Notes: generated by a model from the letters alone, not told the origin. A DNA stretch of 64,000 nt from Blasia pusilla (GCA_050084515.1 CM114271.1:8122001-8186000); one strand, 5' to 3'. Positions 10,211 to 39,031 are shown, counted from the stretch's first letter. Translations and numbers: made by a program.

Positions 10211-13200
10211 ATGGATAATTATGTTAAGCTCAGTTGTGGCAGTCATCTGGCGGCCCTTCCTCAATCAGAAATCATTCGACCCCAAGCTCGTGAGTCTTTC
10301 AGAGCAAATGGATGAAAATTTTCATGTCATTCGATTTCTTCTTCAATTGGAACCATCTTTGTATCCAAAGATGTAAGGGTGGAAGGTACGGAAGACATTA
10401 TAGGTGAGACGGTCCAGCCAATAACCTCAGACCGTAAGGTATGGAATCTCCTACCTGTCGCAAATGGTCAATACAGAGTTTACGGCCTGCCCCTGAATTC
10501 GTCTGTTTCCCAAGTAGACGGTCTAGAATTTCCTAGTGCTCCGAGCTCTACGTTTGCAACTCCAAGCTCTGCAGATCCGGCCGACTCCAACCATGACGCC
10601 AGTAACAATGTTGTTTTTCCTGAAGAGATTCCGGATGTTATCAACCTCGAGTGGATCTTTCGGACACCAATCGGGCCCTCTGTCCGCCTACTCGTTCCTC
10701 TTGCGAGTATCAGGCAATAGTTTGCTTTCGTCTCTGCCCTTGAAAATGTTCAAGCGCATCCTTGTCGACGAGTTGCCGCCCACGTACGATGGTAATTGCA
10801 TTTTTGAGTTGCCTCCACTTGCTGCTCCTGCTCAAAAGAAGGATGGAGGACGCCTGAAGGGTATGGACAAAAAGTCTGATTGTCATCGATGGTGCAGGCT
10901 TCAACGGACCAGTGCTTCAATTCCAGATGGTCCTTGGATTGTCTCTCGCCGCCAATGCGTGGGAGCCTTGGAGTGTAGAAGTCCAACATGCCTGTATCTA
11001 GAGCGCAACGGGTGAGTCAATACGTCGCAATTCCCTCCCAAGAATGCAGAAACTCCATATGAGGTCGGTGCCACCATACTGCCGGGAGGCCATCGATGTC
11101 CTCATTGTCAGGCATCGCCCTTCTGCATTGGAGCGTGTCCTGCATACATATTTTTCATTGTCCACGACTTGGGCTCCACGTCAGAGTATACAAGGCTGGC
11201 TGTCCATGTTGGCTCCCACACTCATCCTGTGATCGAAGCAATTCAAAGACACATCAAGGAGGATGTGGCGAAGAAAGTAGCCGAGGTCTTTAGAAACTCT
11301 CCGGGTTCAAAGCCCGGGGTGATCAAGCTCACAACGGCATCACAAATTTGTGAACAATTGCTTGGAATCCCTGGACAGGGCGAGATCACGGCGGTTGAGG
11401 AGAAACAACTCTGGGAAAATCTCGCATTTCTCGCTGATCCTGAATGCTTTGAATTTCTTTGCGTCGATACGAGTTCGGATGGAAAAGACGAAATGGATGC
11501 CATCGCGAGAATCAAGGCCAACTCAGATTTCCATTCATTCAGATATGGCGTTCATGGGCCAAGGAGGCGAGGATCCAGGGCCTATGTCTTCAAAATGTCA
11601 ACCACAGGTCCGTCGAGTGGCCTCGATCTTATAGATCGAATGAGGGAAGGGGAAGATCTTTACGGGAGCTGGGTCAGCTTTGATATTTGCTCTGAGTCTT
11701 TGAACGGATGGTTGACGATGGGTGCTCACGTTTATGACCATGTGGAGAAGGGACTCAAAACTATATTTGTGTGTGAAGTAAAGCGTAAGACGCGTTGGCG
11801 ATTTGAAGATGTCTTTGGTTACTCTTATTGGAGGTGGTGAAGGAAAACAAAAGGCCACCTCCAGAAATTTATGGGTTCATGGCGGACAATGCACAACCTG
11901 GGTGGATTGCTATCCGGGAAGTGTTTTGGGGTGGAGAGGTTCAACCGGAGAGGGAAAGGTCGGATGCTTTCCATTGGCAACTTGATCTCGACCAGTACAC
12001 CAAATCTTGCATCAAGGAGAATAAGAGGACAAAGCATGTCACTCTACTCCAACGCTGCAAGGACAGCAAAACCTTGAAGCATGGCATGGACTACAAGGAA
12101 GAACTTCATGGGTGGTGGAGGAAGCATGCGATTGAGGGGAAGTACAAAGAGTTGTGCTCTTGGTTGAGTTGGTGGACTGTACGTATGAGACAATGGGGAA
12201 ACTTCATGCGGCAGGTGAGTTCACTATTTTGTCTTGTCAAGCTCACGCTGAGAATTATTTGTAAAGTTGTAGCTCAGGGTGAGAAGCGTGGGAATTATAT
12301 GGATTTCAAACCCAAGAAACCAAGCAAGCTGTCGGATGCGACGGGTTGCCCGAGTGTGCAACCCGACGGAAACCGACGGGTTGCCCAAGGGTGCAACCCG
12401 ACGGAAACCAACGGGTTGCATCCAGATGTTTGGTGCAACCCGAGTGTGCAACCCGTCGGGACCCGACGGGTCACAGAGTTGTTCATGGGATGCCTCGGCC
12501 TTGCAACCTGTCGGGTTCCGACGGGTTGTAGTAGGTGGGTTGAAGGTTACAACACGTCGGGACCCGACGGGTCGCAGAGTCGTTCATGGGATGCCTCGGG
12601 CCTGCAACCCGTCTGGTTCCGACAGGTCGCTTATTTCTTTGACTCCTAAGTTATTTTCGTTCCCTTCTAACATTGCCGTCGTTGCAGGGATTGAACGTTC
12701 ATGAAAATGCCCTCTTCCCCAACACAAGTGGAGCAGAAATTGTTCATTCCTCTTGGAGGTTGTCACAAGCATGCCAACGAATTTCACTTGTGGAGGCATG
12801 CTGTCATAAAGGAAAAGGGCCGTCGATCTACGAGCTCTATGTCGTATGGGTATTTTGTGAGATCTCGGTGATGAAAATTGTATGTCGAAGCCTTCAACGG
12901 TGCGTGAATCGAACTCCTTTCGAGCAAGACGTACACATAGGTGGGGATATTCGGTAATGCGGGTTTCAAGACGCCCCATACTGAGATGGTGGTAGAGCAG
13001 TCGAACGAGACTCGTGGAGACCAGATAAGTATCTTGACTTGAGCGGTGAAGAGGCAAAGATCGAGGAACAAATCCGGTGATTGATTTGGATGAGGAAATT
13101 ACACCGCCAGGTATTAGGGGACCGGACCCGTCCCAAATTCGTGATGGAGTTACTTCTCCAAAATCAGTGAATGTTTTATTTCAAAAGCCCTCCGTTGGTG

Positions 13201-14120
13201 GAAGTTTGCGACATCCCGTCACGGGGTGGTTCAACAATATGGGATTCCGGTAATGGAGGTGGATTGCAACCTAAAACCGTGGCATATATCTCGGAGCAAC
13301 CCGGGCGTGGACCCCTGCAGGCAGGATCGATGGCATTAGGAGAGCATGCGGCACTTTCCTAAATAAGAATGCACAAGGACTAGACGACCTCTGCTGGGTT
13401 TTGGGGACTCAAAACCTTTGATCGTTCACGAGGACGAGGGGATCAATTGAAGTACTTCTTCGCCCAAATGAATCTTGCGCTTTCCGGAAGTCTTATCCAC
13501 CGCCATTGGAGCTCCGGGAATACCCCAAGATTTGGCCCATGGCATGAGCACGAATCGCACTCAAGACGAAGTGGACAATCTTACAAGTGCCGGTTTCAGA
13601 CTCGTAGACGGGGGAAGTTCGGAGCATGTTCGCATTACAGAGACCTTTGCATTTTGTATTCAACCCAAGATTGATGTCAACATGTACCCGGAGAAGGTGT
13701 ATGATCTCAATCCATTATTTCTGTTTGAGTCTAGAAATGGGGTGAAGAGAAACAGAATGTGCAAGCCAACGGTGGAGAGAGCAAAGCGAAGTTGCAAAGC
13801 AGACTCGGGAGGCAAAAATGGAGATCATCGCCACGAAAGATGTCTTGAGTGGCAATGGAATAGGAAGGATGTATTGGGTCAGGAACAACACTGTAAATTC
13901 AAGTGTCACAGGGGTGTATGTGGTGCACATCTGTTGCTTTCCCACATGTTCATGTGATGACTTTGTCCAAAGAGAGACAAGTGGCAAAAGGTATTTCCTT
14001 GTAAGCACATGTACTATGTGTTCTTTGGTAGTTTTAAGAGAGTCGGAGGTAGGAGTAGGAATCCACCAACCACCAATTGTCCCTCAAAGAAGTTGAAGTA
14101 TTTTAAACAAACCACTTTGA
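10211..14120 (+). pseudogene. GCM-fold / MULE DDE / SWIM transposase (copy A), intron 12215-12687
   Basis: RQCVGALECRSPTC...CPHC...HVGSHTHP; WVSFD, FMADNA, DAFHW, GAEIVH; C-terminal CSCDDF...C; GTGAGT...TTGCAG intron; stops and frameshifts. Confidence 0.8.
12325..12630. repeat. 27-bp palindrome array within the transposase intron (copy A)
   Basis: gcaacccgacggaaaccgacgggttgc-type units. Confidence 0.85.
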
Positions 14121-14532
14121 GGATGCAAAGGAGGTTTTAGATTGTACTTTTATTTTTTTCTCAACCTTCACTTCGAGCTTGAACTCGATTCAGCCCCGGG
14201 AAAATGGTAGATTATTTGAGACCTTGGATGGAAAAAGTGATTGGTTCCACACTTATGATTCCATGATTTTTCAGTTTTCTAAATTTTGTGCAATTTGCAA
14301 CTCGTCGGACTCGGAGGGGTTGCCAAAATATGGAAGAGGAAAAAAAAACTGTGGGATTGCTTAATATATGAACAAAAAAGTGCAAAAAATTTCAAACAAA
14401 ACTTTCCTCTCTTCAACCCAACATGAAACTCTCTTCAAAAAAGAGTATCTATTTGGTTGACCCTAGTTTCTCTCTCTCCTCTCTCTCTCTCCTCTCTTCC
14501 TCTCTTCCTCTCCTCTTACCGAGTCTGGTTCC

Positions 14533-14735
14533 CAAGGGACTCAAGGACATACTGTGCAAGAGTGCCCCCTTCAACGAGATTTACGTTGGGTACAAGAAGA
14601 CCCATCTATGGAGGAGGGATGGTATCAAGCAGATCAGTGGGAGGGATGCTACGCAGTTCAGGAAATTTCACGGACTAGTGCTCCTCGAAGCTGGATTCTC
14701 CAATATGTACCACATGGGTATGGAGAGCAGAGGCT
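14533..14735 (+). pseudogene. Ty3/Gypsy gag fragment (from mid zinc knuckle onward)
   Basis: GTQGHTVQECPLQRDLRWVQEDPSMEEGWY matches GTQGHTSQECHTQRDLRWIQEDPTIEEGWY of the gag at 48770-49348. Confidence 0.85.
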
Positions 14736-14979
14736 AGAGTTCGGATGTTCCGCTTGGCGCTCGTTTGGTTATGAGGGTCATTGCTCTTGCCTAGTCTTGT
14801 TGGCATGCCTCAACGAGAGATATTTTTTGACATGTTTGTGATGATCTTTAGGAGGAATGGACATTCTCAGCTCCACTTGTGTTGGGGCAAAGGGCATTTT
14901 TGTGAATGTTCAGTCCCTACATAGGAAAAATTATCAATTGATGGAGGGAACGCTAGGTGTTCAACACTTACAAAATGTC

Positions 14980-15590
14980 AAAATCCAACAAGTTGCAAGT
15001 TCTTCAAATCTTAAGTCCTTGTTGGATGTCAACATTCATATTGCAACCCATCGGAATCGGATGGGTTGCAAGCAAGCTACAAGAATAGGGAACAAAATCT
15101 AACTACAACTCGTCGGATTCCGATGGGATGCAAGAAGAATTTAGTTGAAAACAAGAAGCAAACCGTCAATCAGAAGTATGAAGAACATAAGAACTTGCAA
15201 CCAGTCAGATTGTGAGTAATCTACTTGAGAATACTCTGCTTGCAACACGTCAAAATCCGACGAGTTGCAAGCCGTCGGATTCAAACGAGTTGGAAGATTA
15301 AATTTTCAAGATAAGAAGCAACCTGTCGGATTCTGACGGGTTGCAGCCTAAACTTTTTCGCAAAAAAAGTTGCTTGCAATCTGTCGGATTCGTACAAGTT
15401 GCAACCTCACACTTTGAGAAAATGTTGAACTCACCTACCACATAAAGTTTCCCCATTGCCTCATACGGATGGTCCACCAACTGAGCCAAGAACACAACTC
15501 TTTGTATTTCCCCTCAATTGCATGCGTGATGGTTACTCTTACTGTAGGTGGTGAAGGAAAACAAAAGACCTCCTCCTGAAATATATGGCT
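14980..15590. mobile_element. Rearranged fragments of a diverged subfamily of the same MULE
   Basis: Diverged palindromes; minus-strand HAIEGKYKELCSWLSWWTIRMRQWGNFM piece (about 15430-15527) abutting a plus-strand piece homologous to 11817-11880. Confidence 0.7.
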
Positions 15591-17049
15591 TCTTCCCCTT
15601 CCCTCATTCGATCTATAAGATCGAGGCCACTCGACGGACCTTTGGTTGACATTTTGAAGACATAGGCCCTGGATCCCTCGCCTCCTTGGCCCATGAACTG
15701 CCATCTCCGAATGAATGGAAATCTGGAGTTGGCCTTGATTCTGGCGATGGCATCCATTTCGGCCGTCTTTCCATCCGAGTAACTCAGATATCGACGCAAA
15801 GAAATTCGGAAGCATTCAGGATCAGCGAGAAATGCAAGATTTTCCCAGAGTTGTTTCTCCTCAACCGCCGTGATCTCGCCCTGTCCAGGGATTCCAAGCA
15901 ATTGTTCACAAATTTGTGATGCCGTTGTGAGCTTGATCACTCCGGGCTTTGAACCCGGAGAGTTTCTGTAGACCTCGGCTACTTTCTTCGCCACATCCTC
16001 CTTGATGTGTCTTTGAATTGCATCGGTCACAGGATGAGTGTGGGAGCCAACATGGACAGCCAGCCTTGTATACTCTGACGTGGAGCCCAAATCGTGGACA
16101 ATGAAAAATATGTATGCAGGACACGCTCCAACGCAGAAGGGCGATGCCTGACAATGAGGACATCGATGGCCTCCCGACGGTATGATGGCACCGACCTCGT
16201 ATGGAGTTTCTGCATTCTTGGGAGGGAATTGCAACGTATTGAATCGCCCGTTGCGATCTAGATATGGGCATGCTGGACTTCTACACTCCAAGGCTCCCAC
16301 GCATTGGCGGCGGGAGACAATCCAAGGACCATCTGGAATTGAAGCACTGGTCCATTGAAGCCTGCACCATCGATGACAATCTGACTTTCTATCCATACCC
16401 TTCAGGTGTCCTCCATCCTTCTTTTGAGCAGGAGCAGCAAGTGGAGGCAACTCAAAAATGCAATTACCATCGTACGTGGGCGGCAACTCGTCGACAAGAA
16501 TGTGCTTGAACATTTTCAAGGGTAGAGACGAAAGCAAACTATTGCCTGATACTCGCAAGAGGAACGAGTAGGCGGACAGAGGGCCCGATTGGGTCCGACA
16601 GATCCACTGAGGTTGATAACATCCGGAATCTCTTCAGGAAAAGCAACATTGTTACGAGCGTGCGAAGTTGGAGTCAAAGCCGGATCTGCAGAGCTTGGAG
16701 TTGCAAACGTAGAGCTCGGAGCACTAGGAAATTCTAGACCGTCTACTTGGGAAACAAACGAATTCAGGGGCAGGCCGTAAACTCTGTATTGACCATTTGG
16801 TAGAGTTAGGAGATTCCATACTTTACGGTCTGAGGTCACTGGCTGGATTGTCTCACCTATTATGTCTTCCGTACTGTCCACCCTAACATCTTTGGATACA
16901 AAGATGATTCCAATTTGGAGAAGAAATCGAACAGACAGAAAATTTTCATCCACTACTATGAAAGACTCACGAGCTTGGGGTCGAATGATTTCCGATTGAG
17001 GAAGGGCCGCCAGATGACTGCCACAAGTGACCTTAACATAATTATCCAT
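15591..17049 (-). pseudogene. 5' half of GCM/MULE transposase (copy B)
   Basis: MDNYVKVTCGSHL start; 339-aa ORF 15539-16558 with GCM-like Cys/His pattern; truncated before the DDE core. Confidence 0.8.
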
Positions 17050-17101
17050 TCCAAGAAGATTCCAATGGGAGGAGACTGAGAATGACAATGTGAGAATATT
17101 T

Positions 17102-18078
17102 AATTTATAGTGAATAGGAAACAGATACTCCTGACTGATTTTTACTGACAAGATGAATTCGGTGGGTGACATTGTCTGACACAATGGATCCAATTCTATA
17201 ACACATTCAATTCTGTTGCAATATGTTACCGGATTTGGGAAGCAAAGGGTTGCGCATCACACTTGGAACCCGTCGGAGTCCTGGTAACTCAAAAATTACC
17301 CGAAGCTAACTGAAGCCTGCAACCCGTCGGCATCGGACGGGTTGCACGCTTCTACTAAACAATGTCGAAGCGAGCAACCCGTTGCTCTCCAACGAGTTGC
17401 TCGGATACCGCTCCTTCTTGCCCGAAGATGCCGGAGGCGTGCAAATCGTCTGATCCTGACGAGTTCCGCGGGTGCCTCGCCTTTTAGCCCAAAGACGACA
17501 AGGCGTGCAACCCGTCGCCCTCCAACGGGTTGCGCAAGGGCCTCGCCTTGTGGTGCAGCCAACCAGACTCCGACGACTTGCACGGGAAGCCCTCGTTCTT
17601 AACCCTTGATGAGGGAAGCGTACAACCCAACGGTCTCTGATGGATTGCCCAAGATACGTCCCGTTCCCGTCCCAAACACGGCGGAGGCGCGCAACATGTC
17701 GGTCTCCGACGGGTTGCGCAGGTACCTCACGTTCTTTTCCAAAGACGACGGAGGTGCTCAACCCGTTGGTCTCCAATGGGTTGCTCGCACACGTGGCAAC
17801 GTACCCAGGATGGCGGAGGCGCGCAACATGTCGGTCTCCGACGGGTTGCGCGGGTACCTTGCGTTCTTTTCCGAATACGACGGAGGCGCTCAACCCGTCG
17901 GTCTCCGACGGGTTGCTCGCGCACGTGGCGACGTACCCAGGATGGCGGAGCTGCGCAACCTGTCGGACTCCGACGGGTTGCCATTTTTCACGTCCGGATT
18001 TCCGTAACATCCGGCACGTTGCCGTCAAAAGGACGACGGGACCCAACGGTCAGCCCAACGGCTAGAAAAGTATAAATA
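17102..18078. promoter_or_regulatory. Bidirectional promoter region: divergent TATA boxes flanking a palindrome array with a 132-bp higher-order repeat
   Basis: TATAAATT (minus, 17102-17109) faces the transposase; TATAAATA (plus, 18071-18078) faces the accessory gene; gcggag unit recurs at 17681, 17813 and 17945; same layout in copies C and D. Confidence 0.65.
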
Positions 18079-19554
18079 GGGCAGAAATCGCTCATTTCCG
18101 GTTTCTCATTTCTCGATCTTCATTCCTCACTCTCCCGCGCAGCAGCTGATCACATACGAAGGGGCATTTCACACGGCGACACATCGCGAGTCGATAGAAG
18201 GGAACGAGAGCGAGACCGTTCGACGCAACGACAGCGAGACGGTTCGACCGAGCGATCGCGGAATGATTCGAGCTACCCATCAAGGCGATTCGAGCTCCCA
18301 TCTCGACATCAGCAAGGCGACTGATGAAGGGATTCGTCGTGGACATAGGTGGAGGCATTTCCGGAAAAAATGACGAGGAAAAATCACAAGCCAACAAGTC
18401 AGGAGCTTCACTCCGAAGTCCATTAGGACTCTGCGTCGGCTTCTCTTGGGCCTCGTTCGCGAATGAAATTAGGCAGGAAATCGAGGAGCGGAAAGGGAAG
18501 CGGAGATGCACAACCAAGTGCTTCTTGCGAGACGTGTTCAAGAGGCGCTAGATAAAGCGTAAGCAGAGAGGCGGAGACGTCGCAGCCTTGAAGAAAAGGA
18601 TCGCCGGCGAAAGAGAGAAAAGAAGCGTGACGGGGCGTCGGTGAGGAGGGTAGAATTGGCTAAATCAAGGAGGGAAAAAGCGATAGCCATTGCGATAGCC
18701 GAGCCCGCCCAACCGCAAGTGTTGAGATGGGGGAAATGTCCCCACGAAGTCCGGGACACAATCAACATAGTGGAAACACGAAGTTGAAATCGATGACGAC
18801 GAGGTCATGAGGACCGCCAGCGTGGAGATGGTGGACATGGCGAAGAAGCCGGAGAGCGGTCATTTCGACTCAAGCCCGGCGGAGGACATCGACCTCTATC
18901 GGATCGACGAGTTCCCGTCGATTTGCGGCCCTGTCTCGACAAGTTAGTGGTCAAGAAACCGATCCCATTTTCGGCGGGTAAGAGAGGTTCGGGTTTTTTG
19001 AATTATGTGAATTGCAATTCATTGGGATTTCAGTGTAGCTTATTCCTCTTGTCCGGTTCGACGGTGGTGGTAAAGCGGATGGCACTCATGGAGGGCCCAA
19101 CGCCCCGAGGATTCCACTCTGCCGATTGCGGACAATGGAATACGTCCGCGAAATTCAGTCCGACGAGGACATCGCGAAGCTAAAACAATCGGCGGCGACA
19201 ACATCCTACGTCGATAGCTTTCCTCCCTTCTATGTTCAGCCTTACGACGAGCATGGAACCGAAGCTCTGGTTACCGAGGAGGACTTGGAAAAGCTCGACA
19301 CATTCTGGAGGATGCGAGACCAGGATTTCAGAAGGCAAGTTGAGGGCACGGAATTCAGCTGGATGAGGAATCTGCATTTCTTCATCTGGGACGGAAATCA
19401 CAAGTTCATGGCGTGGACCAAGTTTGCAGAGGAGCGGCCCAACTCATTGGAGGCACATTTCTGCGTGAAGGCAATGGTCCTTCATCCATACCCTCATCAC
19501 ATGGCGACGGTGGAGATGGCAATGCATGCCATGAACACGTGAGTATCTTTAACA

Positions 19555-20080
19555 CTTTCGCAACTCGTCGGACTCCGACGAGTTGCTCGATTAATGAATG
19601 GGTTAGGTTTGTTTTTGCCGAAAGCAACTCGTCGGACTCCGACGGGTTGCTCAACTGCACACTTTTTGGATGTTTTTTTAAGATTGCAACTCGTCGGACT
19701 CTGACGACTTGTTTGATTGACCATAGATTTAACTAGTTTTTGGCCCAAAGCAAACCGTCGGAGTCCGACGGGTTGATTTCGCCAAAAATAGTTTCGAGGC
19801 AAGCAACCCGTCGGACTTCGACGGGTTGCTTTGGGGAAAAAACCTTCTAAACCTGCAGTCACTCGAGCAACTCGTCAGAGTCCGACGAGTTGCATTCTTC
19901 AAAAAACATCCTGACAAGGCAGCCTATCGAGCAACCCGTCGGACTCCAACGGTTCACTAACCAGGCATTAGCAAATCTGAATGCAATCCGTCGGACTCCG
20001 ACGGGTTGCATCATTTAGCTCGTTGCTAGAATCCGACCTTGAGCTGTGACGACCCATCCGAGTCCGACAGGTTGCAGGAA
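19555..20080. repeat. 27-bp palindrome array (intron, copy B)
   Basis: e.g. gcaactcgtcggactccgacgagttgc at about 19560. Confidence 0.9.
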
Positions 20081-22209
20081 CCCATGTAATTTCCTGACGG
20101 GTTGAGTTTGGATGTGCAAGATTGTATCGGAGGGGAATGTCACCCACCATTGGATCCAGGACTGCGATCGGGTGAGGAAGGTGCTTACGACGCACCCGGG
20201 AGAGTACAGGGGGTTCTTGGGCGATGCCCTCGTCAATCAGATGCTTGCAAGGGGTGCTCAGATTAAGAAGAAAACTTGGGCAAATAAGTTTATTTCTCAA
20301 GATGCAGCCATAACCATCCTTTGCTGGTCGAAGATACAGGCCGTGAAGAAAAGCGCTGAAGTGGAGCTGGAGCGGAGGGAGAAGGTATCTGCGTCTGAGC
20401 GCGCCAAATTCATCCAAGCTACGATTATCTCAACGAAATACACAGCGAGCAAGATGCAGCCATACATCAGCATTCTCAACCCCGAACTTGGTCTGGAGTT
20501 CTACGAGGAGCTGAAGGCGATTATCAAGCGCCAGCGGAAGAGGGATGAAGATCCGCATGGTCGGATTGGGGAGAAAGTGTCGCTGGATCACGTGCATCCG
20601 TTTGCGTTGTCCGGGATAAGCGAGTTTAGGAGGATACGACTAATGAAAATCAGTCTCGAGGGCTCAGAGGCCCTAGAAGAGGGCGGCACACCATCCTCCG
20701 GATATGTCCGATCCAGTGATCTCGCATTAGCTAGGCGAATGGTCATTCTGGGACGCGGTGCGGGTAATCGGGAAGTCCGTGCTGGACGGTCTGCAAGCGG
20801 AGCTCAGAAGATTAGAGCCAATTCCGTCGGAAGCAAACCTTGAAAGTTCTGGAGATTTCGAGGTTTGGCTCGACGACATCCGGGACAAGCCAACCAAAAA
20901 CCCAGGATTCAAGACCATGTTCAAGGTTTGCGTCCTCCCTCAGGCAGAGCTTGACGAAGTAGAGGGGAACAAACAAGATCAAGCAAAGAAGAAGCGAGAT
21001 CTACAGGAGCAGACGGCCGATTCTGTTCGACTAAAAGCTGCCCAACGGATGGTCTTCAGGTACCTCGTCTAGTGTAAGAACGCAGGTACGTGGGGAAAAT
21101 TACCGGTAGCCTTGAAATTGTGGGCTTCGCCGGCGGATGCAGAGACATTCTCCATGTAAGACGTGGAGATGGGGCAGCACATGTTCGATTGGGAGGTGGA
21201 GAATTGCCCCATTTGGCTCGACTTAAACGACCCTGAAGACATCACGGATAAGGACCTACGAGTGCTTCATGATGCAGTGGCCTCAGGACAAGACGACATC
21301 CCCAATTTCGTCGGCCAAGACTTCTTCGGAGGAGATGCGTAAGAGCAGGCCCACGAGACAGTGAGTTGGCTTCAAAGGTCCGCACAGCCAAAGACAAATC
21401 CACAGCGGGTCTCAAAGGCAAGGCGAGGGGAGGGAAAAATTCAGAGGCCGAGTCTTCCCAAAGAGAGGCTGAAGATTCAAGGCGGAATCGTCCGGACGAG
21501 CGGGGAGAGATTGTCGGACCAGGTCCTCGGCGAAAAAAACGCCACCAGAATCTGAGGTCATAGAAACCCCCACAAGCCGTCCCCAGGCTAGGGAGAAGCG
21601 GAAGCGAGAGGTGCCCGGGTTGTCCCAAGGAGAATACAGCCCATCATCCTTGGGAAGACACAGACAAAAAACGACTCGGACAAGCATCCTCCTTCAATTC
21701 ACTCCTTTACTAGATGAGCTGAAGAGCTTCACTTCTCAAGCGTCGACACCAGCCATCGAAAAATTGACAACGCTGGGACGGAAGCTCCAACAAAACGGGC
21801 ACGCTGCCTGGACGGTGAATGGAGTGGTCGAAGAGGTTGCGGCGGATCTCTTGATCGCCGATCTGCCCTCGGGGTTGCGACTTTGGGGCGAGAATCCGTC
21901 GGACGAGGTACCTGAGTGGAATGTGCCGCTCTCTTATGACCAGATTGCACTTTTGTTCTCCTTTGCATATGCCTATCTGAGTGACAAGGGCTGCTTCTTG
22001 GTGTTGACTGGAGGGAGCGAGGACGAGCTCTTCAACCTCCAGTGCGTCAAGAGGTCGCTAAAGTGGAGGACGGCACAATCGTGGATCATCAAAAACAAGT
22101 ACCCACTCCGATCCGCGACGAGTCAGATTCGGGTAAGGCTCAATTCCTGTACTATAGTTTCAATTATATTTTAATTATGTGTATAATGAGAGTCAATCTG
22201 GGTTTTTTT

Positions 22210-22595
22210 GTCCGTAAGCAACCCGTCGGAAGGCGACGGGTTCTTTGGCTTTAGAGCGACCCATGCTCGGTGCCGAGCAACCCGTCGGTTTCCGACGGGT
22301 TGCATCTTTCCACATACAGGAAAACGCGGTGTACGCAACCCGTCGGAACCCGGCGAGTTGCGCTTGCTTTTGGTTTTTCGGTTGATTTTGGTTTTTGGAT
22401 GCAACCCGCCGATAGCGGCGGGTTGCTCTCAGCAGCATGGGTCGCTCTAGGCCAGCAACCCGTCGCCCTCCGACCGGTTGCTCATGGACAAAATCAACGG
22501 AGCCCAACGGGTTTTTTTCTCCCTGACCAACCCGTCGGAAGGCGACGGGTTGGTCTGGGACAAAACAACCCGTCGGACTCCGACAGGTTGATCCA
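22210..22595. repeat. 27-bp palindrome array (intron between the two MTase-motif exons, copy B)
   Basis: gcaacccgtcggtttccgacgggttgc-type units. Confidence 0.9.
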
Positions 22596-25024
22596 AAGTC
22601 AGTTATTGAAAATGTTCTCAAGCGACTTCTTTAGTTTTCGACATTGTTTCCAGCGTCTTTGATTCTGAGATGGACCACTCCTACGCTCATCGCTTCGTTC
22701 GGCCCGAGCATAATTTCCAGGTGTTCAATGAGGGTGGCTCTGGTCCGGAAGATCGATTCAGGATCCTGTGGATCGATGCTCAGATGGGTACAGCTTAGAT
22801 AGTTTGTACAATTCCCCCCCGGGAATTTACATGCAAGACAATACCCCACTTTTGGGAGGAAGGGAAAAGTTGCCAGCCCTAATGCAAATGCTCATCGAGC
22901 TCTGCTCAAGGCCGGGTGACTTGGTGTTCGACTTAGTGGGACTTTCAGGGGCAAGTATCAAAGGCGCCTGGCAGAGTGGCAGGAATATTCTCTGCCTCGA
23001 GGGAAGGCAGGAACAGTTTGACCTTTGCAAGGAGGCAAAGGCAGAATACGAAAGGCTCGTTGGGGCGTACAACTCTCCACCGAAGCCGAGAGCTTCCGTT
23101 CCAGAGCCACCCTTGGTAGTGACTCCATCGTCACTTCCAACGATTCCCAAAATCAGGAGGGCAAGGCCGAAAGTGATTTTGCAAGAGCTCTCGGACGATG
23201 ACGAGTGCATTCAAAGAACTCAACGACCCAGCTTGACTGTAGCGTTTGGAGTAGGGAGTTTTTTTATAATGAGGCAAAAGATTTCATAGAATAGATCAAA
23301 TGTACAGTTCCGAGCATTTTTCGGATGATATAAAGCAGAAGATTTTTTCGATCGATGGTGGTGCTTGTAAATGTTTGCTGATCATTTTTTGTCTTTTCGA
23401 ATGTGATCGTCTATGTACTCCACAGACTTCTATTTTGCAACCCGTCGGATTTCTCCTGCTTGCAACTTTCACTTTATGACCACTGCAACCCGTCGAGTTT
23501 CTCCTCCTTGCAACTTTTCGCTTTTTGACCACTGCACCCTATTTACCACCTCCAGGAAACCTGTCTAATTCCGACAGGTTGCCTGATCGGACCCTTTCCC
23601 TGTTGGTCCAACTTAAGAGGCAGTCTGGCAGGCTTCTTCCCTTGGCACCTTCCCCTCAACTCGTAAAGGCAGGCGTAGGCTTCTTTTCTTCTCTCAAACG
23701 TGTTGGATTCCTTCTACCTGTGCGGTTGCCATAATGGTATTACCGGGGACGGAGCAGATATTGATACTTGATGGGTGTCACATTGCAGAGCGTACAAGGT
23801 ATACTGCCGAGGAAGGCGGTGGGACTCGAGACAGGTTACATGGGACCGTTATGGTGTACCTAGGGGGGGGGCCAAGGCTCTCAAATTCGCCAACATTTTC
23901 GGTCCCCGTCTACAATCGGCCAGAGGAGCCACTTGAATCCCAGGACATTCCTTTGAAATTGTCACCGAGGAGAGTTAGGAGTAAATTTGTAGATGACGAG
24001 GCTGAAGAAATCATAAACTAGGTGAAATGTACATTTTCGAGGTTCCTTCGGAGGTAATAAAGGACGAGATTTTTTCAACCCATAATGGTGTTTGTAAAAG
24101 TTTGCTGGAGTATGTTTTTGGACTTGTGGATTGTGTTCTTTTAGCTACTCAGAATTACAATTCTGCAACCCGTATGATTCCGACTTTTTGCTTTTTGCCC
24201 ACTGCAACTTTTTAACCATTTCCAGGCAACCTGTCGGATTCCGATAGGTTGGCTGCTTGAGTCATCGGACTCTATCCCGGTGAGACCAACTTCTGGCGCA
24301 TTGTGGCGGGCTTCTTGACTTTTGGCTCGTTCCCCTTCATTCGTCCAACCAGTTGTAGGCTTCTTTTCTTGTCTACGATGTGCAGGATTCCTACTACCTG
24401 TCGGATTGCCATTTCGGATTCCCAACCCGTTAGATCGTCGTGGGTGCAGGGTGGAAGAAAATCACTTCTAAAAATATTTCCTCTCTTATGGTGAGCTTTC
24501 TTACGGGTTGGGAGGGGTGCAGCTTCTCGGTTTCTCAGCCTTAGGATCTGATTTGTTCACATTTCAGAAAGTTGGTCTTGAGCAGACACCATTCATAACC
24601 GGCAGAAAGTTGGTTATGGGGCAATTTAGGGGAGGCCATGATGCAGGCAACAATCCCTGCAAAAAGAGATGTACCCATCCGGGTGGTCCTCCAACAAAAA
24701 TACCAAGGGCACTGCTTTTTTGTTGACCGAGACAGGGAATGTTAAGAAACTTAGGCTCACATGGAGAGTGATGGAAAAATGTTTAGGGTGGTCTTATGAT
24801 GTCTCCTTTTTTCTCGCCCCCAGGAAAGAGGAGGTTTTTTTAGGGCCAAATTTGGACCACTAAATACTCTCTTCTAAAGATTTCCTGAATTTTAAAGCAA
24901 ACAAAAATTTCAAATATGTCAAAAAGTTTTGAAGAGAGGAGGCGGATTTGGCCTTTTTTTTTTAAGAGAGACTCTCCTCTCTTCCTCTCCTCTCTTACTC
25001 TCTCCTGTCAAAATACCTGCCCCC

Positions 25025-29998: not shown

Positions 29999-32900
29999 CT
30001 AGTCTATGATTTCTTCGGCCTCGTCATCTACAAATTTATTCCTAACTCTCCTCGGTGACAGTACAAAAGGAATGTCCTGGGATACAAGTGGCTCCTCTGG
30101 CCGATTGTAGATGGGGATCGAAAATGTTGGCGAATTCGAGAGCCTTGGCCCCCCCCTAGGTACGCCATAACGGTCCCATGTAACCTGATTTGAGTCCCAC
30201 CGCCTTCCTTGGCAGTATACCTTGTACGCTCTGCAATGTGACACCCATCCAGTATCAATATGTGCTCCGTCCTTGGTAAGACCATTATGGCAATCGCACA
30301 AGTAGTAGGAATCCAACACGTCTGAGAGAAGAAAAGAAGCCTACGGCTGCCTTTACGAGTTGAGGGGAAGCTGCCAAGGGAAGAAGCCAGCCAGATTGCC
30401 CCTTAAGTTGGACCAATAGGGAAAGAGTCTGATCAGGCAACCTGTCGGAATCCGACAGGTTGCGTGGAAGTGGTAAAAAGGTAGTATCGTCAAAAAGTGA
30501 AAAGTTGCAAGCAGGAGAAATCCGACGGGTTGCAAAATAGAAGTCCGCGGAGTACATAGACGATCACATTCGAAAAGACATAAAAAATGTTCAGCAAAAT
30601 TTTACAACCACCACCATCGTTCGAAAAAATCATCGCCTTTATATCATCCGAAAAAAGCTCGGAACTGTACATTTGATCTATTCTATGAAATCTTTTGCCT
30701 CATCATCAAATAACTCCCTACTCCAAACGCTGCAGTCAAGCTGGGTCCTTGAGTTCTTTGAACTCACTCGTTATCGTCCGAGAGCTCTTGCAATATTACT
30801 TTTGGCCTTGCCCTCCCGATTTTCGGAATCGTTGGATGTGACGATGGAGTCACTACCAATGGTGGGTCTGGAACCGGAGCTCTCGGCTTCGGTGGAGAGT
30901 TGTATGCCCCAACGAGCCTTTTGTATTCTACCTTTGCCTCCTTGCAAATATCAAACAATTCTTGCCTTCCCTCGAGGCAGAGAATGTTCCTGCCACTCTG
31001 CCATGCGCCTTTGATACTTGCCACTGAAAGTCCCACTAAGTCGAACACCAAGTCACCCGGCCTTGAGCAGAGCTCGATGAGCGTTTGCATCAGGGCTGGT
31101 GACTTTTTTCTTCCTCCCATAAGTGGGGTACCGTCTTGCATGTAAATTCCGAGGGGGGGATTGTACAAACTATCTAAGCTGTACCCATCTGAGCATGGAT
31201 CCACATGATCCCAGATCTTGAACACCTGGAAATTGTGCTCGGGCCGAACGAAGTAGTAAACGTAGGAGTGGTCCATCTGTAAAGAAGCACGTTGGAAACA
31301 ATGTCAGCAACCTGGCATAATGTGTAACACGTCATCAAAGAAGTCGGCTTGACCCTAAAGAAATTTTTTCCATTACTAACTTTGGAGCAACCTGTCGGAG
31401 TCCGACGGGTTGTTTTTTCCCTGACCAACCCGTCGGAAGGCGACGGGTTGCTGGCCTAAAGCAGCCCATGCTCGGCTGCGAGCAACCCGTCGCTTTCCGA
31501 CAGGTTCCAACTTTCCGGAAACACAAGGAAAAACCAAAAGCAACTGCAACCCGTCGGGTTCTGTCGGAGTCCGACGGGTTGCTTTGGGCCAAAAACTTAC
31601 TAAACTTGTGGCCAGTCAAACAACTCGTCGGAGTCCGACGAGTTGCTTTCGGAAAAAAATAACCTAACCCATTCATCAATCGAGCAATTCGTCGGAGTCC
31701 GACGAGTTGCGTTTGGCCAAAAGCATCCCAACAACAGTGCCGACCCAAACAACTTGTTGGAGTCCGACGGTTTGCAGCAAGAAGATACTTACGTGTTCAT
31801 GGCATGCATTGCCATCTCCACCGTCGCCATGTGATGAGGGAATGGATGAAGGACGACTGCCTTCACGCAAAAATGTGCCTCCAAGGAGTTGGGCCGCTGC
31901 TCTGCAAACTTTGTCCATGCCATGAACCTGTGATTTCCATCCCAGATGAAGACATGCAAATTCCTCATCCAACTGAATTCCGTGCCCTCTACTTGCCTTC
32001 TGAAATCCTGGTCTCTCATCCTCCAGAATGTGTCGAGCTTTTCCAAGTCCTCCTCCATAACCAGGGCTTGGGTTCCATGCTCATCGTAAGGCTGAACATA
32101 GAAGGGAGGGAAGTTGTCGACGTAGGATGCTGTCGACGCTGATTGTTTTAGCTTCGCGATATCCTCGTCGGACTGAATTTCGCTGACATATTCCATTGTC
32201 CGCAATCGACAGAGTGGAATTCTTGGGGCGTTGTGGCCCTCCATCAGTGCCATCTGCTTTACCACCTGTCAGAACCGGGACAAGATCAATAAGCTACACT
32301 GAATTGCCAATGAATTGCAAGATGGGCCTTCATATAATTCAAAAAACCCTGATCCTCTCTTACCCGCCCGAAAATTGGGTCGATTTCTTGACCAACCAAC
32401 TTGTCCGAGATAGCAGCTGGCAAATCGACTGGGAACTCGTTAATCCGATAGAGGTCGATGTCTTCGGCCGGGCTTGGAGACGAGAATGACCGCTCTCCGG
32501 CTTCTTCGGCTTCTTCGGCAATGTCCGCCATCTCCACGGTGGCGGTCGTCATGACCTCATTGTCCGTGATTTGAACTTCTCGCGTTTCCGCTATGTTGAT
32601 TGTGTCCCCAGACTTCATGGGGGACATTTCCAGCATCTCAATACTTTTGGTTGGACGGGAAGGGTTGTCGTCAATGGCTATCGCTTTTTCCCTCCTCGCT
32701 TTAGCCAATTCTGCTCTCCTCACCGACGCGTCTAGACGCTTCTTTTCTCTCTTTTCGTCGGCGATCCTTTTCTTCAAGGCCTGCGACGTCTCAGCCTCTG
32801 CGTTCTATCTATCAAGCGTCTCGCAAGAAGCTTGTGGTTGTGCATCTCTGCTTCCCTTTCCCACTCCTCGATTTCCTGCTGCCTAATTTCATTTGCCGAA

Positions 32901-33067: not shown

Positions 33068-33319
33068 GATCGTTCAGGCAAACCGTCTCGCTCTCGTTCG
33101 GTTGTACCGTCTCGCTCTTGTTCCCTCGTATCGACTCGCAATGACTCGCCGTGTGAAACGCCCCTTGCTATCTGATCAGCTGCTGCGTAGGAGAGAGAGG
33201 AATTGAGATCGCGAAATGAGAAACCGGAAATGAGCGATTTCTTTCCTATTTATACTTTTCTAGCCGTTGGGTCCCGTCGTCCTTCCGACGGCGACGTGCC
33301 GGCCGTTACGGAAGTCCGG

Positions 33320-34090
33320 ACGTGAAAAATGGCAACCCGTCGGAGTCCGACAAGTTGCGTGCCTCCGCCTTCCTGGGAAGATAACGCAAGGTGCGCGAGC
33401 AACCCGTCGGAGACCGACGGGTTGAGCGCCTCCGCCGTTTTCGGACAAGAACGCGAGGTACCCGCGCAACCCGTCGGAGACCGACAGGTTGCGTGCCTTC
33501 GCCGTCTTCGGACAAGAACGGGGCGTACCCGCGCAACCCGTCGGAGACCGACATGTTGCGCGCCTCCGCCATCTTCGGAAAAGAACGGGATGTACCCGTG
33601 CAATCCGTCGGAGACCGTTGGGTTGCACGCTTCCCTCGTCAAGGGTTAACAACACGGGCTTCCCGTGCAACTTGTCGGAGTCCGACAGGTTGCACGCTTC
33701 CTTCATGTAAGAAAAGCAAGGCGAGGCCCTTGCGCAACCTGTTGGAGGGAGACGGGTTGCACGCCTCGCCGTCTTTGGGCAAGAAGGTGCGGCACCCGCG
33801 GAGCTCGTCAGAAACACACGTTTTGCACGGTTCCTTCATGTAAGTGTTACACCGTGAGATAATTGGGCAACCCGTCTGATGCCGACGGGTTGCAAGCCTC
33901 TGGCATCTTCGGGCAAGAAGGAGCGGTATCTGAGCAACTCATCGGAGAGCGACGGGTTGCCACCTTCGATCATGTTTGCGTTTGAAGGTAAGGCAGAAGC
34001 GTGCAACCCGTCCGAAGCCGACGGGTTGCAGGCTTTGCTTAGCTTGGGTTAATTGTTGAGTTACCTGGACTCCGACGGGTTCCAACAATC
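33320..34090. repeat. Palindrome array in the bidirectional promoter (copy C)
   Basis: gcaacccgtcggagaccgacgggttg units. Confidence 0.85.
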
Positions 34091-34281
34091 CTGCTTCCCA
34101 AATCCGGTAACACATTGCAATAGAATTGGATCCATTGTGTTAGACAATTTCACCTACCAAACTTCATCTTGTCAGTAAAAATCTGTCATGAGTATCTGTT
34201 TTCCTATTCACTATAAATTAAAAATTCTCATTCTCATTCTCTTTCTCATTCTCACCCTCCTCCGGTACGAAATTTCTGGGA

Positions 34282-37200
34282 ATGGATAATTATGTGAAGC
34301 TCACTTGTGGCAGTCATCTGACGGCCCTTCCTCAATCAGAAATCGTTCGACCGCAAGCTCGTGAGTCTTTCATAGCAGTGGATGAAAATTTTCTCTCTGT
34401 TCGATTTCTTCTCCAAATTGGAATCATCTTTGTATCCAAAGATATTAGGGTGGGTGCTACGGAAGACATAATAGGTGAGACATTCCAGCCAGTGTGACTC
34501 TGAGACCATAAAGTATGGAATCTCCTACCTCTAGCAAATGGTCAATACAGAGTTTACGGCCTGCCCCTGAATTCGTCTGTTTCCCAAGTAGATGGTCAAG
34601 AATTTCCTAGTGCACCGAGCTCTACCTTTGCAACTCCTAGCTCAGTAGATCCAGCTTTGACTCCAACTTCACACGCTCGTAACAATGTTGTTCTTCTTGA
34701 AGAGATTCCGGATGTTATCAACCTCAGTGGATCTGTCGGACACCAACCGGGCCCTCTGTCCGCCTACTCGTTCCTCTTGTGAGTATCAGGCAATAGTTTG
34801 CTTTCGTCTCTGGCCTTGAAAATGTTCAAGCACATTCTTGTCGACGAGATGCCGTCCACGTATGATGGTAATTGCATTTTTGAGTTGCCTTTACTTGCTG
34901 CTCCTGCTCAAAAGAAAGATGGAGGACACCTGAAGGGTATGGACAGAAAGTCTGATTGTCATCGATGGTGCACGCTTCAACAGACTAGTGCTTCAATTCC
35001 AGATGGTCCTTGGATTGTCTCCCACCGCCAATGCGTGGGAGCCTTGGAGTGTAGAAGTCCAGCATGCCCGTATCAAGAGTGCAACGGGCGAGTCAATACG
35101 TCGCAATTCCCCCCCAAGAATGCAGAAACTCCATACGAGGTCGGTGCCACCATACCGCCGGGAGGCCATCGATGTCCTCATTGTCAGGCATCGCCCTTCT
35201 TATCGCCCTTCTTCGTTGGAGCATGTCCTGCATACATATTTGTCGTTGTCCACGACTTGGGCTCCACGTCAGAGTACACAAGGCTGGCAGTTCATGTTGG
35301 CTCCTACACTCATCCTGTGACCGATGCAATTGAGAGACACATCAAGGAGGATGTGGCGAAGAAAGTTGCCGAGGTCTAGAGAAACTCTCCGGGTTCAAAG
35401 CCCGGGGTGATCAAGCTCACAACGGCATCACAAATTTGTGAACAATTGCTTGGAATCCCTGGATAGGGCGAGATCACGGTGGCTGAGGAGAAACAACTCT
35501 GGGAAAATCTCGCATTTCTCGCTGATCCTGAATGCTTCCGGAATTTGTTGGTCAAATACGAGTTCTGGATGGAAAGACGGCCGAAATGGATGCCATCGCC
35601 AGAATCAAGGCCAACTCCATATTTCCATTCATTCAGAGATGGCAGTTCATGGGCCAAGGAGGCGAGGGATCCAGGGCCTATGTCTTCAAAATGTCAACCA
35701 CAGGTCCGTCGAGTGGCCTCGATCTTATAGATCAAATGAGGGAAGGGGAAGATCTTTCGGCGGTGGGTAAGCTTTGATATTTGCTCAGAGTCTTTGAACG
35801 GATGGTTGACGATGGGTGCTCACGTTTATGACCATGTGGAGAAGGGACTCAAAACTATATTTGTGTGTGAAGTAAAGGCAAAAGACGTTGGCAGTTTGAA
35901 GATGTGTTGGTTACTCTTATTGGAGGTGGTGAAGGAAAACAAAAGGCCACCTCCGGAAATTTATGGGTTCATGACGGACAATGCACAACCTGGGTGGATT
36001 GCTATCCGAGAAGTGTTCTGGAGTGAAGATGTTCAACCGGATAGGGAAAGGTCGGATGCTTTCCATTGGCAACAGTCTGTGACCCGATACACCAAATCTT
36101 GCATCAAGGAGAATAAGAGTACAGAGCATGTCACTCTACTCCAACGCTGCAAGGACAACAAAACCTTGAAGCAGGCCATGGAATGTCAGGAAGAACTTCA
36201 TGGGTGGTGGAGGAAGCAGGCGATTGAGGGGAAGTACAAAGAGTTGTGCTCTTGGTTGAGTTGGTGGACTGTACGCATGAGACAATGGGGAAACTTCATG
36301 CGGCAGGTGAGTTCACTATTTTGTCTTGTCAAGCTCACGCTGAGAATTGTTTGAAAAGTTGCAGCTCAAGTTGAGAATATTGGATTCTCAACATCCACTC
36401 CTCTGAGCACCATTGATTTGATCGGCCCCCTTGTATGAGGAGAAGCCTAGATCAATGGTTCCGACTTAGACGTCGAAGGAGTCATAGTAATATGACGTAG
36501 GTGGTTTACGGAGTAGCGTTACTAGGTTTATCTAACCCTATATTGCATCAGGGTGCAGGGCACCCTGATGCAATATAGGGTTAGATAAACCTAGTAAAAT
36601 TTTTCTATTAATAGAAACGAAGAAAAATAGGTAAAAACCCTAGTTTTCCCGAGTAGTCAAATAGTCGGGAGCCGCAGTGGTAGCACATTCTCGTATGTCG
36701 AGTTATCTCCCAGTTCAGGTTCCATAGAAGCTCTTCTGTGAGCGCACGGACGGACTAGGCCACTTTGTATCTCTAAGTTTTTGTAAAGATTTTAGTGATT
36801 TAGTCACTTTTTGTTTTCTCACAGAGAAGCGTGGGAACTATAGGGATTTCAAACCGAAGAAACCAAGCAAGTTGTCGGATGTGACGGGTTGCCTGATTGT
36901 GCAACCCGACAAAAACCGACGGGTTGCCCGAGTGTGCAACCCGATGGAAACCGACGGGTTGCATCCAGAATTTTGGTGCAACCCGAGTGTGCAACCTGAC
37001 GGAAACCGACGGGTCGCAGATTCGTTCATGGGATGCCTCGGCCTTGCAACCTGTCTGGTTCCGACAGGTAGCTTATGTCTTTGACTACTGAGTTATTTTC
37101 GTTCCCTTCTAACATTGCCGTCGTTGCAGGGATTGAACGTTCATGAAAATGCCCTCTGCCCCAACACAAGTGGAGCAGAAAGTGTTCATTCCTCTTGGAG

Positions 37201-38628: not shown

Positions 38629-39031
38629 GGATGCAAAATGAGGTTTTAGATTGTACTTTTATTTTTCCTGAACCTTGAGTTTGAGCTTGAACTCTATTCA
38701 GCCCGGGGCAAATGATAGATTTTTTCCAGACCTTGGATGGAAAAAGTGATTGGTTCCACACTTATGATTCCATTGATTTTTCAGTTTTGTATATTTTGTG
38801 CAATTTGCAACCGGTCGAACTGAGATGGGTTGCCAAAATATGGAAGAGAAAAAAAAATGTGGGAGTGCTTAATAACTGAACAAAAAAGTGCAAAAAAATT
38901 CACAAAAAAAGTTTCCTCTCTTCAAAAAAAAGTATCTATTTCGGTTGAGGGTAGTTTCCTCTCTCCTCTCTTCCTCTCTCCTCTCTCCTCTCTCCTCTCT
39001 TCCTCTCTTCCTCTCCTCTTATCGCACCTCC

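Follow-up and report, generated by a model that had tools for sequence, protein, structure and literature searches.

A conserved methyltransferase-like domain with an altered catalytic motif in a repeated element of the liverwort Blasia pusilla

Here, we describe a methyltransferase-like domain encoded within a repeated element of the liverwort Blasia pusilla. The window, that is, the whole stretch of 64,000 nucleotides (nt) that was analyzed (GCA_050084515.1, CM114271.1:8122001–8186000), is eukaryotic in style, with multi-exon genes, and holds four copies (A to D) of a unit of ~10 kb. Two exons at 21845–23000, in copy B, would encode the C-terminal domain of a large accessory protein of this mobile element. 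Judging from sequence comparison, the domain is a conserved, probably catalytically impaired methyltransferase-fold module that would serve the element as an accessory domain. It almost certainly descends from prokaryotic or phage beta-class N6-adenine/N4-cytosine DNA methyltransferases, with the motif IV–VIII half first, followed by motifs X, I, and II. Most structural motifs are kept. They comprise the strand ahead of motif IV, the P-x-W-N loop, D-x-G-C with a hydrophobic strand, the motif I strand GD-hhh-D, and an acidic residue that follows strand 2. Such a module would still fold, and may still bind S-adenosylmethionine (SAM) and DNA. Methyl transfer in the usual way is most likely lost because the residue that would stack on the flipped base is no longer aromatic. 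The module could serve the element by binding DNA or the cofactor, perhaps as one half of a dimer, like METTL14 beside METTL3.

The motif IV segment, DLLIADLPSG, lies at 21845–21874 on the plus strand (GAT CTC TTG ATC GCC GAT CTG CCC TCG GGG) in open reading frame (ORF) 21473–22174, and it has DLPS where the catalytic tetrad would read (D/N/S)PP(Y/F/W). The motif X/I/II block, EKLPALMQMLIELCSRPGDLVFDLVGLSGASIKGAWQSGRNILCLE, follows at 22864–23000 on the same strand in ORF 22732–23289. In an alignment of the DNA of the copies, A, B, and D (the last with DVPSG) have Ser where an aromatic residue is expected, and copy C lacks that exon. Motif I reads VGLSG in A, B, and D and VGLSV in C in place of F-x-G-x-G; in this branch, the first Gly of FxGxG has become Leu. 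The original prediction, made from the sequence alone, had described both blocks and their permuted order, the Tyr-to-Ser change in the three copies that keep the exon, and the altered FxGxG in all four copies, and each of these readings was borne out. It had further proposed that the degeneracy is older than the decay of the copies, and the relatives of the domain agree with that.

We tallied motif IV over 23 family rows, comprising the window, Riccia sorocarpa, R. fluitans, and further assemblies, at 20–34% identity to the window; 14 of the rows are Riccia paralogues and not independent of one another. Position 1 is Asp in every row (23/23). Position 2 is Leu, Met, Ile, or Val in all 23 and Pro in none. 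Pro occupies position 3 in 22 rows, Gly occupies position 5 in 19, and not one of the 23 has an aromatic residue at position 4. The family pattern is D-[LMIV]-P-x-x, and LDLPSG, the common form in Riccia, is also the window's own form. The same form of motif IV recurs across the whole family, and we therefore read the altered motif as ancestral and conserved, a selected state rather than the outcome of copy decay. The frameshifts and deletions in the window copies are a later layer. Motif I is G-G-W-G in 12 of 14 Riccia rows, that is, the loop is retained in that branch, and the acidic residue after strand 2 is retained in the window (CLEG) and in most Riccia rows.

Profile searches tied the C-terminal block, weakly in each case, to one enzyme family at one and the same place. 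Against the Pfam profile PF01555 (N6_N4_Mtase; gathering cut-off, 26.7 bits), the block of copy B matched positions 168–220 of 221 (E = 9.6e-4, 19.6 bits), and the second exon of copy C gave E = 0.0069 (16.8 bits), both below the cut-off. All four PDB sequences at E ≤ 10 were beta-class adenine methyltransferases (M.RsrI, E = 0.029; DpnA-named enzymes, E = 0.56), and all four PHROG families matched were methyltransferases (E = 3.9e-4 to 0.16). NCBIfam returned no match for four window pieces. The original prediction had named profile searches as a check on the fold, and for the C-terminal block every match in PF01555, PDB, and PHROGs is to a methyltransferase.

Relatives of the motif IV exon were found by phmmer (HMMER) against 1.84 billion representatives, which gave 10 matches at E ≤ 0.001 (best, 1.6e-13); word-indexed protein searches with the same exon returned no relatives, among longer and near-length proteins alike. 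The named relatives came from R. sorocarpa and R. fluitans. One Riccia cluster (P0005, P0016) carries both halves in a single protein, collinear with the window gene, and a further search added 29 R. sorocarpa paralogues, on contigs of at least six different lengths. P0006 (756 residues, repetitive) was dropped as a low-complexity match before all alignments. When 16 Riccia relatives were scanned, ten matched PF01555 at E ≤ 0.01 and three exceeded the cut-off (31.7, 27.6, and 27.0 bits); P0026 covers positions 16–217 of the 221-position profile. Queried with Riccia P0019, phage sequences yielded 45 records at E ≤ 1 by tblastn; among the 20 matches listed, 18 fell under annotated methyltransferases.

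Next, we aligned the family, as 24 rows in which the two exon products of the window are separate rows, to four phage enzymes with hhalign. The whole domain aligned with a probability of 97.0% (E = 8.4e-11) over 188 collinear columns. This result is flattered by the choice of the four enzymes, which were drawn from the best tblastn matches to one member of the family and so are no independent sample; even so, it stands far from the controls. The alignment runs from query positions 74–280 on template positions 23–239 of 252, in the order of the beta permutation, and lays DLPeG on DIPY (phage Lrm1 gp43) and GD-ividf-ggwg on GD-vid-gsg. The C half alone likewise reached E = 8.4e-11. The N half alone aligned at the expected place with E = 0.011 (all rows) or 3.8e-4 (the 9 rows nearest the window), at a probability of only 3.8–36%. 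By contrast, the reversed control and five column-shuffled controls gave E = 0.16–0.95. A scan of viral contigs with the family alignment produced 48 pattern matches, none of which was confirmed. Homology to the beta-class amino-methyltransferases (PF01555) is well supported for the C-terminal half. For the whole domain, it is supported by three results, namely the alignment of the profiles in collinear order, the structural searches with a liverwort relative, and the fold of the two window halves as separate chains. Taken as a whole, we regard the homology of the domain to PF01555 methyltransferases as nearly certain.

The fold searches used an AlphaFold2 model of Riccia P0005, built from 15 Riccia sequences, which is of low confidence (predicted local distance difference test, pLDDT, 47.6; predicted template modeling score, pTM, 0.50) and represents a protein about 26% identical to that of the window. 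In Foldseek, the best match was CcrM (E = 8.6e-10), and among the matches listed all were permuted DNA or RNA amino-methyltransferases. VIA-align ranked M.MboIIA (Z 11.7, root mean square deviation [rmsd] 3.9, 190 aligned) and CcrM (Z 11.7, rmsd 3.8, 195 aligned) ahead of M.PvuII (Z 10.8), M.RsrI (Z 10.4), and the rotifer Adineta N4CMT (8s9m, Z 9.7); all 50 listed rows were amino-methyltransferases, METTL3–METTL14 structures among them. The beta-class amino-methyltransferase fold put forward in the original prediction is thus the one that the profile alignment and the structural searches return.

We also folded the exon 1 product of copy B together with the exon 2 product of copy C and SAM, as two chains. 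The score was 0.65, compared with 0.02 for the best control; a mark of 0.65 is attained by 51 of 78 solved complexes and by 2 of 108 mismatched pairs. The runs agreed in at least 58% of contacts, with a partner pLDDT of at least 55. The tightest contacts were between ADLLI, which precedes DLPSG, and DLVFD of motif I; a contact of these two strands would correspond to the strand 4/strand 1 pairing of a class-I methyltransferase. The predicted placement of strand 4 beside strand 1 comes from models of low confidence that may carry a memory of solved methyltransferases, and we take the two-chain result as an indication of likeness to the fold.

The domain forms the C-terminal end of a large multi-exon accessory protein of roughly 900 residues or more (Table 1). 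In the exon that encodes motifs IV to VIII, for which the 5' limit given is provisional, similarity to the relatives begins near 21680. The inferred intron that splits the domain contains six copies of a 23-bp palindrome. Its donor, GTAAG at 22133, is invariant in the DNA alignment of the copies; the acceptor AG at 22668–22669, before ATGGACC, is present in B and C, and reads CG in A and GG in D. Both exon ends at the inferred 22132/22670 junction are in phase 0. At the same junction, two Riccia gene models (P0001 and P0002) run on into the intron and end there, and two others (P0005 and P0016) cross it. The second exon begins with ATGGACCAC at 22670 and reads straight on in A, C, and D (MDHSY...FQVFKIQDPVDPCSDGYSLDSLYNSPPGIYMQD...REKLPALMQ...). 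In copy B, the motif IV block and the motif X/I block are not in one frame, owing to a 26-nt insertion. A 50-nt intron at 22788–22837 that would restore the frame of B was ruled out, as A, C, and D read through it and RNA reads lack the insertion. The ancestral stop, TGA at 23205–23207 in A, C, and D, is TGC in B, where the frame extends to 23289.

Each copy is broken in its own way. Copy B has an intact first exon and a frameshifted second exon. Copy C has lost the motif IV exon and keeps an intact second exon, whose product matches Riccia P0016 (BLASTP, E = 2e-12). In copy D, the first exon has lost 1 nt and has a 4-nt insertion, and the second exon has also lost 1 nt. Quite apart from the missing insertion of B, copy A has small indels, four in its first exon and seven in its second. 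In the middle exons of copy B, the frame changes without clear introns, and this copy is probably frameshifted there too; the open frame at 21160–21342 (EVENCPIW) matches Riccia P0016 (E = 5e-6). None of the four window copies encodes an intact domain, and all four are pseudogenes.

Transcripts of the family were found in RNA labeled as the same species. In three runs of 2026, 70, 153, and 103 reads aligned to copy B, nearly all at 90–95% identity. No read was at least 99% identical, and the reads therefore derive from related copies and not from copy B itself. Related copies elsewhere in the genome are transcribed, at a low level. The first mate lay mostly on the minus strand, as expected for plus-sense RNA in most stranded libraries. 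A joint from 19538 to 20120 (7 reads, three runs) links two upstream exons with the frame kept; on the letters of B, it reads GT..AA, or TG..AG with the cut one place on. Reads that enter at 22761 have upstream letters without the 26-nt insertion (6 reads in one run, 8 in another), and the expressed relatives differ from B by small indels near 20423–20432. At the 22132/22670 junction, where the depth was only 1–3, no joint was seen. The in-frame splicing of the two motif blocks, on which the original prediction depended, has indirect support from the invariant donor, the AG acceptor in B and C, the phase 0 ends, and the Riccia proteins that run across the junction; no RNA joint was seen there, and copy B itself is frameshifted.

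Several observations weigh against an impaired but folded methyltransferase module in the element. The window's own PF01555 scores stay under the Pfam cut-off, the motif IV exon alone had no significant match in Pfam, NCBIfam, PHROGs, or PDB, and a profile of 15 Riccia proteins retrieved one weak row from the PDB sequences (E = 0.65). To these we add the low hhalign probability of the N half, the favorable choice of phage enzymes, the quality and remoteness of the P0005 model, and the RNA data, with neither a transcript of copy B nor a joint inside the domain. Two further points concern catalysis. Position 2 of motif IV need not be Pro, as the D-I-P-Y of the phage relatives shows, and the G-G-W-G loop of Riccia, together with the acidic residue of motif II, points to a possible active enzyme.

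The alternative that survives best is, accordingly, that the protein is active as a DNA (or RNA) amino-methyltransferase although its motif IV is non-canonical; the element would then mark its own DNA or that of the host with N6-methyladenine (6mA) or N4-methylcytosine (4mC). Base stacking would in that case fall to another residue, for instance the invariant Trp of the V-P-x-W-N loop. Conservation extends to the Asp and one Pro in motif IV, to the strand of motif I, and to the motif II acidic residue, and a DLPSG as strongly conserved as this is also what one would expect of an active site. The retained Riccia loop and the annotated phage relatives, in which position 2 tolerates change, point the same way. 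However, the aromatic residue at position 4 is absent from all 23 rows, and the first Gly of G-x-G is Leu in the window branch. In (D/N)PP(Y/F) enzymes, activity falls by orders of magnitude when the aromatic residue is replaced. Beta-class enzymes do write 4mC in liverworts, but the writers in question, MpDN4MT1a and MpDN4MT1b of Marchantia polymorpha, are host genes with a canonical TSPPY, according to the available part of that report (bioRxiv 10.1101/2021.02.12.428880). Weighing these residues, we consider an active enzyme possible but rather unlikely. The original prediction had offered a divergent active enzyme and a dead binding module side by side; we lean to the latter, and impaired catalysis with binding retained seems to us the probable state of the domain.

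A bolder proposal is that of a pseudo-methyltransferase engaged in an epigenetic conflict, in which the N-terminal domain would sit on the palindrome arrays of the element. There the methyltransferase fold would hold the DNA or flip its bases; alternatively, it would bind to a beta-class enzyme of the host, such as the liverwort 4mC writer DN4MT1, as a partner or to titrate it away. If true, the element would be shielded from, or would redirect, host DNA methylation, and its protein would be an anti-silencing factor of a kind undescribed in land plants. We regard this as improbable.

Neutral decay of a once canonical enzyme gene, in a family with no function for element or host, is more improbable still. 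That all four window copies, 86–92% alike, are broken would fit decay, as would the ratio of nonsynonymous to synonymous substitution (dN/dS) of 1.46 for the A–D pair. Yet dN/dS, a check that the original prediction had suggested and that we ran on the window copies, is below 1 in eight of nine pairs (0.27–0.84), on small counts (7–33 changes per class) and with the copy A rows disturbed by frameshifts, which tempers the case for selection. Moreover, the motif IV form and many other columns are common to proteins only 20–34% identical, in two Riccia species and further assemblies; 19 columns are invariant in 15 Riccia paralogues, and relatives are transcribed. It is very likely, in our judgment, that the family is under selection. 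Finally, a chance or convergent likeness of a generic Rossmann-like nucleotide-binding stretch, which could appeal to single-sequence matches of window pieces that all fall under the usual thresholds, an N half without a match of its own, and a low-confidence AlphaFold model, is close to refuted by the distance of the profile–profile alignment from its controls, by the three relatives above the Pfam cut-off (one of them over nearly the whole profile), by weak matches from four libraries that converge on one family at one place, and by fold searches that yield only permuted amino-methyltransferases.

With the beta-class enzymes (M.RsrI, M.MboIIA, CcrM, M.PvuII, and Lrm1 gp43), the impaired module that we favor shares the order IV–VIII, variable region, X, I, II, along the collinear alignment described above, and the same fold in the model of a relative. 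Also common to both are the P-x-W loop, the motif I strand (GD-hhh-D), and an acidic residue in motif II. Unlike them, the window family lacks the aromatic residue of motif IV, the window branch lacks the first Gly of FxGxG, and the window domain is spread over two exons at the end of a long protein in a eukaryotic repeat. A non-proline residue at position 2 of motif IV is a likeness to enzymes of the Lactobacillus phage Lrm1 type (DIPY). The closest phage matches of the family, from phages Lrm1, IPP65, and Javan597, are small methyltransferases annotated as adenine-specific, with D-I-P-Y in place of D-P-P-Y.

Beta-class amino-methyltransferase folds are known in eukaryotes. The N4CMT of bdelloid rotifers is a eukaryotic 4mC writer of bacterial origin, as described in the available parts of two reports (PMC8885841, PMC10406627), and the Adineta enzyme is among our fold matches; the host of MpDN4MT1 and the nearest relatives of the window are members of one plant group. 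In contrast to the window family, which is multi-copy, element-borne, and without the motif, MpDN4MT1 and N4CMT are canonical host enzymes whose activity has been shown, as far as the available texts go. No plant group other than the liverworts is known to have a proven 4mC system, which they owe to beta-class writers of bacterial origin, and a second, multi-copy, element-borne branch of the fold, with a selected non-canonical catalytic motif, bears on how such genes enter and spread in eukaryotic genomes. It also bears on the origin of pseudo-enzymes from DNA methyltransferases, and on whether transposons carry tools to read or counter host DNA marks.

Precedents exist for methyltransferase folds kept without activity. 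An inactive methyltransferase domain is carried by DIRS1 retrotransposons, and METTL14 is an inactive partner, according to the accessible text of PMC4738411. To the extent that this text describes them, both resemble our family in a conserved fold with a disrupted strand 4 motif that is kept by selection, and DIRS1 further in that a mobile element carries the domain. They differ in belonging to other clades of the superfamily, and the parallel in function is one that we draw by analogy. Our search of the literature found nothing on a transposon methyltransferase-like gene of this kind in liverworts.

The public names of the Riccia relatives call for caution. P0016, P0020, P0022, P0027, P0028, P0030, and others are named 'Trimethylguanosine synthase'. 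Pfam finds only PF01555 in the scanned proteins of that name, which looks like an automatic mislabel. Riccia labels such as 'DNA methylase N-4/N-6 domain' or 'trimethylguanosine synthase' should be read as a warning that they mark transposon genes with an altered active site.

Upstream in the same gene, the exon at 19135–19538 is homologous to the N-terminus of Riccia P0031 and P0029. Its DGNHK motif, DGNHR in P0031, recalls ParB/sulfiredoxin-like domains, and the idea of a domain of this sort, as in prokaryotic ParB–methyltransferase fusions, gained no support from profile or fold searches. The exon had no match in Pfam, NCBIfam, PHROGs, or PDB sequences, and one row at E = 10 in a phage tblastn search. 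Its AlphaFold model (pLDDT 44.4) had no fold match (best Foldseek E, 0.53; best Z in the wide VIA search, 3.8). In the ESM Atlas, one cluster at 0.94, with ParB_N on 11% of its members, serves as a lead only.

The element itself was delimited by self-BLAST, in which the ~10 kb unit recurs four times, in both orientations. All four copies share the terminus GGGGGCTGGTATTCTGGCAGG (at 3215, 25024, 28908, and 55078), and their flanks are unrelated. We looked for a second end of the element, inverted terminal repeats, and target-site duplications and found none; the far ends of A and C hold no inverted copy of the shared terminus. We call the element a transposon because of its copy number, shared terminus, unrelated flanks, and multi-copy relatives. 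The original prediction spoke of a module domesticated by the transposon; that the domain is borne by the element holds, and with a repeated unit, a shared terminus, multi-copy relatives, and a presumed transposase gene as neighbor, it is better described as part of an accessory gene of the element. The terminal sequence occurs a fifth time at 52690–52714 (plus strand, 2 mismatches), 2.4 kb before copy D, and may be a solo end or a fragment.

The transposase of the element is presumably encoded by its second, divergent gene, which breaks off at 15591 in copy B. The N-terminal stretches of this gene are rich in Cys and His, a pattern that may be WRKY/FLYWCH-like, and it has a weak match to the SWIM zinc finger (E = 0.013, 15.5 bits; cut-off, 19.6). 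A classification of the element as a Mutator-like element (MULE) was set aside, with no match to a Pfam transposase family in 8 ORFs; for a DDE transposon of MULE or Zisupton type, the SWIM match is the one sign found.

Table 1. Coordinates of the features described, counted from the first letter of the window.
Feature	Position	Strand	Basis or remark
Element copy A	3215 to about 14520	inverted	self-BLAST
Element copy B	15591..25024	+	self-BLAST; carries the 21845-23000 domain
Element copy C	28908 to about 39020	inverted	self-BLAST
Element copy D	55078 to window end	inverted	self-BLAST
Upstream exon of the same gene, holds FFIWDGNHKFMAW (...WDGNHKFMAW...)	19135..19538	+	homology to Riccia P0031, P0029
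Middle exons of the gene	20120..21342 (open frames 20106-20843, 20731-21072, 21160-21342)	+	ORF list
Exon, N-terminal half of the domain (motifs IV to VIII), copy B	21473..22132	+	open frame (ORF 21473-22174)
Inferred intron, 537 nt, splits the domain	22133..22669	+	copy alignment, Riccia models
Second exon: pre-X strand, variable region, motifs X/I/II, proline-rich tail, acidic end	22670..23207	+	copy alignment
Insertion of 26 nt specific to copy B, shifts the frame in the second exon	about 22729-22754	+	no counterpart in A, C, D
Intact second exon of copy C, 170 codons then TGA	30767-31276	-	copy alignment
Second, divergent gene, copy A	10300-14100	+	
Second, divergent gene, copy C	34200-38630	+	
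Second, divergent gene, copy B	15539-17256	-	
Palindrome arrays, copy B	17321-17979, 19562-20007, 22220-22589		
Palindrome arrays, matching places in A, C, D	e.g. 33334-34027, 59976-60683		
Tandem repeats between the two genes of the element	33265-33800, 62244-62576, 17680-17981		67 nt unit (132 nt in B)

Accessory genes of a related kind are known from red algae. In the available portion of one report, Plavaka, Mutator, and Zisupton transposons of red algae carry the genes PAG2 (PF01555 and SET) and PAG3 (ParB-like and 2OG oxygenase), and the accessory genes adjoin inverted-repeat arrays (bioRxiv 10.1101/2025.02.11.637652). Compared by description only, the element of the window resembles these in being a large DNA transposon with a PF01555 accessory gene, in carrying inverted-repeat arrays inside, and in that most copies are degenerate and transcription is low. 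It differs in its host, a liverwort rather than a red alga, and in that no SET or 2OG domain was found in the window gene, relative to PAG2 and PAG3 as that portion presents them. Transposon accessory genes with PF01555 have thus already been reported in red algae, and the window family would be a variant of that known kind. The window would extend methyltransferase-bearing accessory genes of the red-algal kind to a land-plant genome.

The inverted repeats of the window element are copies of the 23-bp, CG-rich palindrome AACCCGTCG-N5-CGACGGGTT, which occurs 102 times in the window at up to 3 mismatches, compared with 0 expected. The arrays sit in the introns of the element and between its two genes, at a spacing of about 64–67 nt, and each unit of the tandem repeats between the two genes holds one palindrome unit. 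A few palindromes lie outside the element copies, at 11–177, 14299–15342, and 53578–54756.

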